Positions 17,656 through 56,087 of a DNA stretch of 64,000 nucleotides are shown here, one piece after another. The notes beneath the pieces are model-generated. The model was given only the letters and a program-made list of their open reading frames with translations. It had not been told where the DNA came from and did no database searches. Source of the stretch: a phage; the sequence record PZ445554.1. One strand, 5' to 3'. Made by a program: the position numbers and the translations under genes. Each line of letters starts with the position of its first letter. Position 1 is the first letter of the stretch.

Positions 17656-17990
17656 AGTAGAAAATCTAATGTATTAGTTTTTTCACAACGAACAACAGAA
17701 GGACGTAAAAGATTTTCGTCAATAGCTTCTGACTGGATTTTTTCAATTATCCCCGAAGGAATAAATTTAGCAAATTGAGTTTCAGGAATAGAGTTTTCTT
17801 CCAAGAATGCTGTCGTAGCTTCAAGATAACTCATTCCAAACTCTTCTACCATTTTTTCAATAATAAATCCGTTTTCTTGACGATCAAGAAGCTTTGCTAT
17901 TTCATCCTTTTCTTTCTTGATTGAAAGTTCTTTTTCTGAAAGACCGGTCTCATCGACCGGACGAATATCATTTAGAGAAAACTGTGTCAT
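17652..17990 (-). CDS. 33: late transcription co-activator gp33
   Basis: 112 aa from ATG at 17988-17990 (track start is TTG); position between 59 and dsbA. Confidence 0.75.
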   Translation of the reverse strand: MTQFSLNDIRPVDETGLSEKELSIKKEKDEIAKLLDRQENGFIIEKMVEEFGMSYLEATTAFLEENSIPETQFAKFIPSGIIEKIQSEAIDENLLRPSVVRCEKTNTLDFLL

Positions 17991-28832: not shown

Positions 28833-29489
28833 ATGGCAGCACCTAGAATATCATTTTCGCCCTCTGATATTCTATTTGGTGTTCTAGATCGCTTGTTCAA
28901 AGATAATGCTACCGGGAAAGTTCTTGCTTCCCGGGTAGCTGTCGTAATTCTTTTGTTTATAATGGCGATTGTATGGTATAGGGGAGATAGTTTCTTTGAG
29001 TACTATAAGCAATCAAAGTATGAAACATACAGTGAAATTATTGAAAAGGAAAGAAATGCACGCTTTGAATCTGTCGCCCTGGAACAACTCCAGATAGTTC
29101 ATATATCATCTGAGGCAGACTTTAGTGCGGTGTATTCTTTCCGCCCTAAAAACTTAAACTATTTTGTTGATATTATAGCATATGAAGGAAGATTACCTTC
29201 AACAATAACTGAAAAATCACTTGGAGGATATCCTGTTGATAAAACTATGGATGAATATACAGTTCATTTAAATGGACGTCATTATTATTCCAACTCAAAA
29301 TTTGCTTTTTTACCAACTAAAAAGCCTACTCCCGAAATAAACTACATGTACAGTTGTCCATATTTTAATTTGGATAATATCTATGCTGGAACGATAACCA
29401 TGTACTGGTATAGAAATGATCATATAAGTAATGACCGCCTTGAATCAATATGTGCTCAGGCGGCCAGAATATTAGGAAGGGCTAAATAA
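28833..29489 (+). CDS. t: holin T
   Basis: 218 aa, single N-terminal TM helix and large periplasmic domain; sequence recognised as T4 holin. Confidence 0.9.
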   Translation: MAAPRISFSPSDILFGVLDRLFKDNATGKVLASRVAVVILLFIMAIVWYRGDSFFEYYKQSKYETYSEIIEKERNARFESVALEQLQIVHISSEADFSAVYSFRPKNLNYFVDIIAYEGRLPSTITEKSLGGYPVDKTMDEYTVHLNGRHYYSNSKFAFLPTKKPTPEINYMYSCPYFNLDNIYAGTITMYWYRNDHISNDRLESICAQAARILGRAK

Positions 29490-53374: not shown

Positions 53375-53548
53375 TCAGTCTTCAATGAAAACTTGTGCCA
53401 GGAATTCGTGTTCATCTTGAATTTGTTTATATAAAGCCATTACAGCATTTATATTAGAGCTATCTACTTTAAGTTGATAAGCATACCACTCGTGTAAATT
53501 AATTAAAGCTTTTTGACGTCTAATAAATTCTTCTTTGGATATTTTCAT
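53369..53548 (-). CDS. small ORF, about 59 aa (absent from track)
   Basis: ATGA overlap with upstream ORF. Confidence 0.25.
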
Positions 53549-53745
53549 TTTGAATGCTCTATAATTAATTTTAAGGCTTTTTCACTGACAAAAATTTCAT
53601 CAGGACCTTCTTCTACAACCCAATCAACCATACGAAGCTGATTAGATAAGAGCTCGTATGTGAGCTCTTTGTCATAATTTTTAAATAGCTGGTCAATACG
53701 TTTCTTGCGGGCTTTCTTAAGCTGGCGTTTATTTAAACGAGCCAT
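53545..53745 (-). CDS. basic hypothetical protein, 66 aa
   Basis: ATG at 53743-53745 overlapping gene 56 stop. Confidence 0.4.
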   Translation of the reverse strand: MARLNKRQLKKARKKRIDQLFKNYDKELTYELLSNQLRMVDWVVEEGPDEIFVSEKALKLIIEHSK

Positions 53746-54263
53746 CAATAACCTCGGTCTTGACGAGCGAAATTTTCAGCATTTTTCAGATAATAAAGTT
53801 TAAAGATTTCTTCAGCTGACATTCCAAGAGCAATGAATTTATTCATGAAAAAGTGAAATTGGTCAATCAGTTCAAATTTAATTTCAAGCTGATCTTCGGG
53901 AGATAAATCTTGAATTTTCTTGGATTGCATTTCAGAATAACGTTTCTTCCAAGGTTTCCATACGGCAGAAGCTTCTTTTTCACCATTACTCATACCACCA
54001 AGAGAAGTATATAGCTCGCGAGTTTCATCTGCGATATAATCGTCTTGGTTTCGCAGCCAAGCAAGAACTTCTCCTGCAGTTTCAAGTGAATCAGGATGAC
54101 GATTTGTTTCTGGTTTATCATTAGCCAAACGAATCTGTAAATGCCGCTGCATATCAAGCATAACCTGCAGTGGGTCAATATTGTGCATAATATTCTCAGC
54201 ATATGCACGAGTTGCTTTATCAACACCTTCGATCAAATGAGCACATTCATTAAAGTGAGCCAT
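53745..54263 (-). CDS. 56: dCTP/dUTP pyrophosphatase gp56 (MazG-like)
   Basis: 172 aa from ATG at 54261-54263 with SD AAGGA; the track's 36-aa N-terminal extension runs through the middle promoter. Confidence 0.7.
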   Translation of the reverse strand: MAHFNECAHLIEGVDKATRAYAENIMHNIDPLQVMLDMQRHLQIRLANDKPETNRHPDSLETAGEVLAWLRNQDDYIADETRELYTSLGGMSNGEKEASAVWKPWKKRYSEMQSKKIQDLSPEDQLEIKFELIDQFHFFMNKFIALGMSAEEIFKLYYLKNAENFARQDRGY

Positions 54264-54295
54264 TATTTTTCCTTTCAATTCATGGATTAATAGAT

Positions 54296-54325
54296 TAATT
54301 ATACAATAAATATATAAAGCAATAA
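54296..54325 (-). promoter_or_regulatory. MotA-dependent middle promoter for gene 56
   Basis: MotA box ATTGCTTTA, 11-bp spacer, TATAAT. Confidence 0.5.
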
Positions 54326-54336
54326 GGAGGATATAT

Positions 54337-54537
54337 ATGGTACAAAAATTAATGGCACTTGTTAATGCCATAAAAGGTAATAAAAAACGTATAGCTTTTA
54401 CTATTTCTGCTATGGTAGGAATTTTACTCTGGAACTTTATTCTATCACCTGTTGCAATTGCACATGGTATTAATATTCCAGTAGTTACTCTTGATACATT
54501 CGTAGATTTAGCATTTGCTTTAGTTGGGTTAATTTAA
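54337..54537 (+). CDS. small hydrophobic ORF, 66 aa, antisense to the 56-61 intergenic region (uncertain)
   Basis: ORF track; apparent SD AAGGAGG is the complement of the gene 56 MotA box, so it may be coincidental. Confidence 0.3.
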   Translation: MVQKLMALVNAIKGNKKRIAFTISAMVGILLWNFILSPVAIAHGINIPVVTLDTFVDLAFALVGLI

Positions 54538-55562
54538 ATCTTGGCATATTTAGATAGCCGCATTTTAGCCATTAACCCCTGGGCAATATTATTTTTCATA
54601 TATTCCATAATTTGTTCAGGGGTTGCACCTTCCTTTCTAATCATATCATTAACATCTTTTGATTTCCAGGGAGATTTATCCCAAAACATAACCCTTTCTC
54701 CTGCATCAACTAATTTAGTCATTCGCTTAATAGTGTCAGGATGACGAGGTTCATTATCTAAAACCCACACGCGTCTATCTTTAAATGGAACAATTTCTAG
54801 GTCTAATTGACCACCCGTAATAGCTATACCATTTTCAATAAAAAGTGAATCTATAGGTCCTTCTAGAACATATACATCACCATCTTTAACTCGTTCGACT
54901 CCATAGATTTTTGTTGCCTCAGGATAAGCTTTGATGGTGATATATTTTTGAGGAGCATCTTTCTTTAATGCACGTCCTTGAAAAGACTCAGCTTTTCCAT
55001 TAGCATTATAAATTGGAATAACAAGACGAGGCTCAGGTATTTCCTTTTTATATGTTCCTGGTGCTATGCTATTAACTAATTTAGGCCATTCAGTTGTAAA
55101 CCAAAGATATTTCCATTTATCCTTTGGAATACAACGAGCTTTTACGTATTTTATAATTGGATGGTCTTCCGCCAGTTTATCTAATCTAACACATGACGGA
55201 AGAGATTTAATTATTTTCTTCTCAGGTTGTTTAGGAAGTTCTTTAGGTTTTTCTACTGGACGACTTTTACCTTTTTCTTTTCTTATTTCAAAGATATACT
55301 CACGATATAAATCAGGTTCAAACTCCTTTAAATATATTCCGATTGGTGCATGATAGTTACAGTTATAACAATGAATATTTCCTTCATTATTATCACCATA
55401 ATACCATCCACGAGCTTTATTCTGGTCGGTTTTTGAATCTCCACAAACAGGGCATCTAAACCGTAATTTAAAAGTTGAACTATTATTTACTTGTGTGAAT
55501 TTAGGTAAATGAGCTAATGCACGGTATGCAAACTCATTATCAATCCAAGGTATTGATGACAT
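54534..55562 (-). CDS. 61: DNA primase gp61
   Basis: 342 aa; N-terminal zinc ribbon CPVCGD...CYNCNYH and TOPRIM motif VYVLEGPIDSLF. Confidence 0.9.
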   Translation of the reverse strand: MSSIPWIDNEFAYRALAHLPKFTQVNNSSTFKLRFRCPVCGDSKTDQNKARGWYYGDNNEGNIHCYNCNYHAPIGIYLKEFEPDLYREYIFEIRKEKGKSRPVEKPKELPKQPEKKIIKSLPSCVRLDKLAEDHPIIKYVKARCIPKDKWKYLWFTTEWPKLVNSIAPGTYKKEIPEPRLVIPIYNANGKAESFQGRALKKDAPQKYITIKAYPEATKIYGVERVKDGDVYVLEGPIDSLFIENGIAITGGQLDLEIVPFKDRRVWVLDNEPRHPDTIKRMTKLVDAGERVMFWDKSPWKSKDVNDMIRKEGATPEQIMEYMKNNIAQGLMAKMRLSKYAKI

Positions 55563-55729
55563 TTTTACTCTTCTTTTTCTTTAGATTCCTCTTTTTTCTT
55601 TTTAGGAATCTGTTCAGGACCTTTATTTACTACAGCGCCTGATGTTGTTCCAGTAGAGATATTTTCAGGACTACCACCTGAATCTCCAGCGACCATATCT
55701 TCTTTGATAAATTCTTTATATGTTTTCAT
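55559..55729 (-). CDS. small lysine/glutamate-rich ORF, about 56 aa (absent from track)
   Basis: Stop abuts gene 61 start. Confidence 0.3.
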
Positions 55730-55730
55730 A

Positions 55731-56087
55731 TTAACCTCTATTCATAAAAGCATTAAAAATTTGGTCATCAATAGATGGTGCAGTAATATTTTCTGCATCA
55801 TTTAGCAAATCATTAATTTCATCAGATAGCATAACACATGTACCTTTATTTCCTGTAATTGTTACTGCGCAATTACGAACGTTTTCTTTATTAAATTTTA
55901 GGTTAATATTTTCGTAATGAAAATCCTTTAGTGCTGAATATATTTTTAAAATAAAATTATCTTTTACTATAATAAACCCAACCTCACTATTAAAACGTGG
56001 TTCATGGAAACTGTAATAAACCTTTTCATCTATAAAATCGTATGAAATTTTTTCCATTTTTAAATATGAAAATTCAGAACTATGCAT
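55731..56087 (-). CDS. hypothetical protein, 118 aa (61.2 position)
   Basis: ORF track; second ORF clockwise of gene 61. Confidence 0.45.
   Translation of the reverse strand: MHSSEFSYLKMEKISYDFIDEKVYYSFHEPRFNSEVGFIIVKDNFILKIYSALKDFHYENINLKFNKENVRNCAVTITGNKGTCVMLSDEINDLLNDAENITAPSIDDQIFNAFMNRG

Follow-up and report, generated by a model that had tools for sequence, protein, structure and literature searches.

The window analyzed here is a 64-kb stretch of DNA from a T4-like phage, and the locus under study is its interval between gene 56 and gene 61. To judge from its sequence, the region around 54 kb is that of a Tequatrovirus of the RB14/T6/RB18 type; bases 53700-55600 align with RB14 over their full length at 98.4% DNA identity. 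The following genes and reading frames lie at or near the interval.

53375-53548, minus strand: 57-aa ORF, in the position that segF has in T4
53545-53748, minus strand: 67-aa ORF, the same as RB14ncORF029c
53745-54263, minus strand: gene 56 (dCTPase/dUTPase), from the ORF list; gp56 is annotated in RB14
54337-54537, plus strand: ORF of 66 codons, orthologue of T4T dam.1
54534-55562, minus strand: gene 61 (DNA primase), from the ORF list and the RB14 annotation, convergent with the 66-aa ORF
55731-56087, minus strand: 61.2 homologue of 118 aa, of the RB32ORF033c type, against 208 aa in T4

Past gene 61 on the minus strand lie 61.1, the short 61.2 homologue and sp, as given by the ORF list and by the RB14 and T4T annotations. 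On the other side of the locus, T4 has segF between gene 56 and soc, where the window has the two small ORFs at the head of the list. A 208-aa minus-strand ORF reading from 54371 was considered as an N-terminal extension of gene 56 and rejected, all antisense frames containing stops when six sequences were compared; annotated gene 56 starts agree on 54263.

Four signals accompany these genes, three of them upstream of the 66-aa ORF and one within it.

54323..54298, minus strand: MotA-type middle promoter, consisting of ATTGCTTTA (54323..54315), an 11-nt spacer and TATAAT (54303..54298)
54305-54312, plus strand: putative gp55-type late box, AATAAATA, an A(-13) variant of TATAAATA
54324-54330, plus strand: Shine-Dalgarno sequence AAGGAGG, 6 nt before the ATG
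54371..54342, minus strand: terminator-like hairpin, ATGGCATT-AACA-AGTGCCAT, then the T run TAATTTTTGT, in ORF codons 2-12

Much of this layout had been described in a sequence-only reading of the locus, and read directly the interval measures 270 bp (54264-54533), as stated there. We also recovered its near-consensus MotA promoter for gene 56, its AAGGAGG and its hydrophobic plus-strand product of 66 aa (GRAVY 1.25). The ORF does end inside the 3' end of gene 61, with an overlap of 4 nt, and there the stop codons of the two genes overlap in the sequence TTAA (54534-54537). The claim that the ORF starts within the complement of the MotA box was wrong: the ATG lies 14 nt beyond the box. The overlap with the middle promoter involves the Shine-Dalgarno sequence of the 66-aa gene, which abuts the MotA box, together with the gene's leader and putative late promoter. 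The picture of a small gene embedded in a promoter holds for the promoter and leader of that gene and fails for its coding sequence.

Distribution and coding status of the 66-aa ORF

When the 66-aa product was used as a tblastn query, a check that the sequence-only reading had named, homologues were found in 697 phage records. Tequatrovirus homologues were 90-100% identical, those of Mosigvirus and Gaprivervirus about 50-55%, and that of a Kanagawavirus 38%. Searching 1.84 billion representative proteins with a profile added further relatives at 20-30% identity, all of them 57-70 aa long, and tblastn with three distant relatives revealed ORFs in Gelderlandvirus (S16 gp16.1), Dhakavirus (JS10), Klebsiella phages and more Kanagawaviruses. 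Sampling of related loci with a narrow alignment covered 8 viral contigs. At every locus opened, the ORF was flanked by gene 56 and the primase gene; it read from the other strand and converged on the latter. The order 56(-)/ORF(+)/61(-) was seen in Tequatrovirus, Mosigvirus, Gaprivervirus, Kanagawavirus, Gelderlandvirus, Dhakavirus and a Klebsiella phage, and the gene is a fixed part of the 56-61 interval throughout the Tevenvirinae, the enterobacterial T4-like phages, with at least seven genera showing it in this place.

Substitutions in these sequences show that the 66-aa ORF is a genuine gene under purifying selection at the protein level, confined to its own frame. It was intact in all 24 loci compared, and the Nei-Gojobori dN/dS was between 0.09 and 0.31 in all informative pairs. 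Pooling of within-genus pairs (3 independent) gave a pS of 0.189 (28 synonymous changes on 148.5 sites) against a pN of 0.032 (14 nonsynonymous changes on 439.5 sites), that is, a pN/pS of 0.17 (Fisher p = 4e-9). Variable sites within Tequatrovirus were distributed 10/2/13 over the three codon positions, and of the six reading frames the +1 frame alone was free of stops in the six sequences compared. OE5505 and P0071 have in-frame deletions of 3 codons, representing two independent indels.

The sequence-only reading had left open whether this was a real gene or a chance ORF in AT-rich DNA, in which case the region would consist of the 3' untranslated tail of gene 61 and the promoter of gene 56. 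Its shortness, the lack of annotation in the T4 reference, JS10, VR20, SP18 and VR7, and the minus-strand terminator-like hairpin inside it would all suit a chance origin. However, the hairpin is not conserved outside Tequatrovirus, and the Shine-Dalgarno sequence upstream of the ORF is conserved. Nor would chance account for a pN/pS of 0.17, for a stop-free course in the ORF's own frame only, for indels that are all in frame, or for protein homologues that retain their length and position down to 20-30% identity. Selection, in-frame indels and conserved position therefore refute the chance ORF, to which we assign next to no probability. Of the two options, it is the real gene that stands, by the evidence of selection, the 697 records, the position and the match to PHROG 2024.

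The last of these was a match at E = 1.4e-31, with residues 2-66 aligned to profile positions 1-65 of 65. The 66-aa protein shows the full-length match, the 56-61 position and the core motif of the PHROG 2024 / dam.1 family; it is identical to the RB14 protein and 98% identical to T4T Dam.1. Length, position, orientation and the 4-nt overlap with gene 61 are shared with T4T dam.1, RB32ORF030w, RB69ORF029w and S16 gp16.1, and the difference from these relatives is confined to the neighbourhood, with nothing in the gene itself. The gene is already known, being annotated in many genomes as dam.1 / PHROG 2024 with no function assigned. Names on record are RB32ORF030w in RB14 ('similar to RB69ORF029w'), dam.1 in T4T and gp16.1 in S16; the exact protein has been deposited from 259 contigs, and 31 of 31 named cluster members are listed as hypothetical or uncharacterized. 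A literature search by gene and family names (dam.1, RB32ORF030w, RB69ORF029w, PHROG 2024) found no paper, and one for ribosome-profiling data or start-site maps of T4 yielded nothing usable.

Although T4 serves as the model virulent phage, its reference annotation NC_000866.4 lacks this gene under clear purifying selection. Between dam and gene 61 the record leaves a gap, in which an intact ORF lies unannotated at 17738-17938 (+); the ORF is likewise unannotated in AF158101, JS10 (locus 1474-1674), VR20, SP18 and VR7 (the last three by tblastn). Since only NC_000866.4 features were counted in the main time-resolved study of the T4 transcriptome and proteome, that study could not report dam.1, and the annotation gap hides the gene from feature-based omics in general.

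The sequence-only reading had suggested, with some uncertainty, that T4 has a larger gene, possibly dam, at this locus. This was correct, as both T4 and T4T carry dam (-) between gene 56 and dam.1. It was also right in supposing that the present phage lacks the gene: a tblastn search of the 64-kb window with T4 Dam gave nothing better than E = 2.1. Comparison of the 56-61 interval across T-even genomes, likewise proposed there, revealed a constant position of the ORF and a variable slot at the site of dam. The slot holds a homing endonuclease in fPS-90 (locus 780-1430) and a mazG-like gene in Kanagawaviruses (about 1130-1470), and it is empty in the window, RB14, T6 and Mosigvirus. Such varied contents mark the slot as an insertion hotspot. 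T4 dam DNA was found in 184 phage records, and at least 80% of a dam-less 56-ORF-61 query was found in one place in 396 records; the dam-less layout is the commoner of the two. In alignment, the interval of the window corresponds to the T4 56-dam spacer, which contains the gene 56 middle promoter, joined to the T4 dam-dam.1 spacer, which contains ATAAATA and the Shine-Dalgarno sequence.

A separate observation concerns gene 56 itself (53745-54263, minus strand), in which this phage differs strongly from other Tequatroviruses (pS about 0.6, pN about 0.19). The 66-aa ORF next to it retains more than 90% identity, and this contrast points to a mosaic boundary, left by recombination, within the spacer between them or close to it.

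Predicted opposing middle and late promoters

The T4 late promoter box, TATAAATA, lies roughly one turn of the helix ahead of the transcription start. The AATAAATA of the window agrees with it at 7 of 8 positions and differs in the first base. A published list of 50 T4 late promoters contains 32 perfect boxes and 9 with A at the first position, the rest having other single changes (PMC2988020); A(-13) is the commonest natural variant class in this list (9/50). A NATAAATA box (ATAAATA) was present 14-24 nt before the ATG in 10 of the 11 loci inspected, while the flanking sequences diverge. In full, the box reads AATAAATA in the window, fPS-90, Mosigvirus and JS10, GATAAATA in T4, CATAAATA in Gaprivervirus, Roth79 and KLB31, and TATAAATA in Q7622 and Entb_45; the exception is S16, which has ATTAAATA only. 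The first base is off-consensus (A, G or C) in most lineages. On the plus strand of the 64-kb window ATAAATA occurs 8 times, corresponding to 0.3% of 30-nt windows, and NATAAATA sites number 13 over both strands. At all loci inspected the ATG is also preceded, at a distance of 5-7 nt, by GGAG or GGAGG as a minimum, and in most the match is longer.

Early and middle transcripts of T4 share one polarity, and late ones may have either (PMC2988020). With the 66-aa ORF on the plus strand and genes 56, 61, 61.1 and sp on the minus strand, the polarity fits late transcription only. We found neither a sigma-70-like nor a MotA-type promoter on the plus strand upstream of the ORF. From the opposite strand, the late box and the strong ribosome-binding site we infer late transcription, by way of a predicted gp55-dependent transcript that would start near 54318, about 19 nt before the ATG. 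Two genes with a similar arrangement are present in the window: soc, with a perfect TATAAATA upstream, and the gene for the T-type holin.

28833-29489, plus strand: holin gene t (Phage_holin_T, E = 4e-117)

In the segment 28807-29489 (+), this gene is preceded by AATAAATA, 18 nt before its ATG. Both soc and holin gene t are T4 late genes lying within early regions, and they resemble the 66-aa gene: the leader is short, the Shine-Dalgarno sequence is strong, and a TATAAATA-type box stands ~20 nt ahead of the ATG; their late expression is established in T4, whereas that of the 66-aa gene is predicted from sequence.

Since no plus-strand terminator was found after the ORF, read-through is possible, and the late transcript may run antisense into gene 61. 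In Klebsiella phage Roth79 (locus 1693-1710), where the ORF stops short of the primase gene, the 18-nt gap between them is filled by a GC-rich hairpin, GGGGCTTTGGCCCC, which may be a bidirectional terminator.

On the other strand, MotA-dependent promoters consist of (a/t)(a/t)TGCTT(t/c)A, a gap of 11-13 nt and a sigma-70 -10 element, and ATTGCTTTA, the 11-nt spacer and TATAAT of the window agree with this in each part. The pattern TGCTTYA-N11-13-TANNNT has 9 sites in the window against 2.3 expected, a number reached in 0 of 100 shuffles, and three of its copies, that of gene 56 among them, have a perfect TATAAT. Gene 56 is probably transcribed from this predicted MotA-dependent middle promoter. 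The T4 gene 56 middle promoter has the same position, a MotA box, a spacer of 11-12 nt and TATAAT, and the sequence from the promoter to the gene 56 start codon aligns with T4. The T4 record names the transcript of the gene 56 promoter as the oriA primer, and fPS-90 has a 'predicted middle promoter' annotated at the same place. In T4, however, the promoter lies between dam and 56, far from dam.1, whereas in the window it is back to back with the putative late promoter of the small gene.

The terminator-like hairpin may end gene 61 transcripts ahead of the middle promoter, and in fPS-90 a terminator is annotated at the homologous place. It is limited to Tequatrovirus loci, being absent in Mosigvirus, Gaprivervirus and Kanagawavirus. 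We also considered the hairpin as the cause of the conservation of the ORF and rejected this, the protein still being conserved where the hairpin is absent.

The late box falls within the 11-nt spacer of the middle promoter (54304-54314, minus strand). MotA-type promoters stand back to back with the late box in Mosigvirus, Gaprivervirus and JS10 as well, at differing offsets, and no such pair is found in T4 or the Kanagawaviruses because another gene separates the two promoters. The overlap thus results from compaction and is not a universal feature. With a middle and a putative late promoter inside about 40 bp, the interval is also a compact natural example in which to study the sharing of one site by two RNA polymerase forms at different times. 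For the sequence-only reading as a whole, the observation was partly confirmed and its interpretation partly supported; the existing annotation, the conserved late box and the greater frequency of the dam-less layout had escaped it.

Predicted product and possible role

The 66-aa protein has K or R at positions 4, 13 and 16-18, a hydrophobic segment at about 19-41, and D53 and D57 after it. There is a single low-energy 19-residue window, at residues 19-37, and the predicted energy of transmembrane insertion is borderline (summed Hessa scale +0.4 to +3). AlphaFold2, run with an alignment of 16 sequences, returned helices at 2-12, 16-42 and 52-63 with a mean pLDDT of 77.7. Most likely, then, the product is a small inner-membrane protein with a single transmembrane helix. 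By the positive-inside rule it is predicted to be N-in/C-out, with a periplasmic tail of ~25 residues, and its C-terminal helix could fold back as a re-entrant membrane hairpin. The core motif W-N-[FY]-x3-P ... G-x3-P ... [LI]-[DE] is present. Among 16 closer sequences W32, N33, F34, P38, G44 and P48 are invariant, and the residue at 53 is acidic across the closer relatives. When distant relatives are included (18 sequences), only P38 remains invariant; W32 and N33 are found in at least 90% and other positions vary. Conserved Asn residues within membrane helices are well known to drive the association of such helices, and N33 suggests an association of this kind here. Scans of the protein and 18 family members against Pfam, NCBIfam and PADLOC gave no meaningful match, a profile search of the PDB returned transmembrane-helix noise only (acetylcholine receptor chains), and Foldseek against BFVD found family members only.

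Three other roles for the locus have to be weighed against that of a late membrane protein. The selected property could be late plus-strand transcription itself, antisense to gene 61 and head-on against the gene 56 promoter in a late shutdown, with the peptide secondary. The overlap of the late box with the middle promoter of gene 56 is in line with this, and read-through antisense to gene 61 is plausible in the absence of a plus-strand terminator after the ORF. But antisense transcription alone leaves the amino-acid selection, the motifs and the strong Shine-Dalgarno sequence unexplained; moreover, dam separates the late box from the gene 56 promoter in T4, where no MotA-type promoter was found beside the box, and a GC-rich hairpin stands between the ORF and the primase gene in Roth79. 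We consider this role improbable. Marginally harder to sustain is an early or middle product, for example one in superinfection exclusion or anti-defence like Imm and Sp, made from an unrecognised plus-strand promoter. The T4 small membrane proteins with known roles (Imm, Sp, Ac) do act early, and sp is 1.5 kb away; against this, the upstream search for sigma-70-like and MotA-type plus-strand promoters found none, and the upstream element that is conserved is a late box.

That the protein is a holin, as a UniProt label on the OE5505 orthologue would have it, we regard as very unlikely. It is small, hydrophobic and probably expressed late, A0A482MZV5 bears the name 'Holin' in UniRef and BFVD, and a weak match to GTA_holin_3TM (E = 0.03) was obtained with 3 of 18 members, all distant ones. 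Yet there is no significant match to the holin families of Pfam or NCBIfam, the label looks automated, with nothing found to back it, and every other member is called hypothetical or uncharacterized. The window, besides, already encodes a T-type holin, and no lysis gene adjoins the 66-aa gene.

We think it likely that the 66-aa gene is the orthologue of T4T dam.1, transcribed late and encoding a small inner-membrane protein. In this explanation, RNA polymerase with gp55, gp33 and gp45 would transcribe dam.1 late in infection from the conserved late box, and a single stretch of ~40 bp would be used by two forms of the polymerase, at different times and in opposite directions. The product would have a basic cytoplasmic N-terminus and a transmembrane helix at ~19-41 containing W-N-[FY]-x3-P, followed by the conserved G-x3-P loop and, in the periplasm, by a short amphipathic helix of acidic character; through the conserved Asn, the helix would associate with itself or with a partner membrane protein.

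As to function, our best guess, weakly held, is a late or lysis-phase accessory role at the envelope. A more specific and rather doubtful proposal is that dam.1 belongs, so far overlooked, to the late part of the T-even envelope programme, as a single-pass protein whose W-N-F/P helix binds a membrane partner and which tunes lysis or late membrane integrity. Holin T, the RI antiholin, the spanins or a host inner-membrane protein might be that partner, and the timing or inhibition of lysis the outcome. If this is true, dam.1 has escaped 60 years of T4 genetics and the recent omics because the reference annotation lacks the gene. Entering dam.1 in the reference could help to complete the late membrane or lysis programme.

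Comparison with the RI antiholin, the T holin and the spanins of T4 revealed no similarity in sequence or fold, and the predicted periplasmic part of Dam.1 comprises only ~25 residues. The predicted protein is like them in its small size, its membrane location, its probable late timing and its probable contacts with membrane proteins. Its likeness to the proteins of the lysis and envelope network is one of kind, not of membership.
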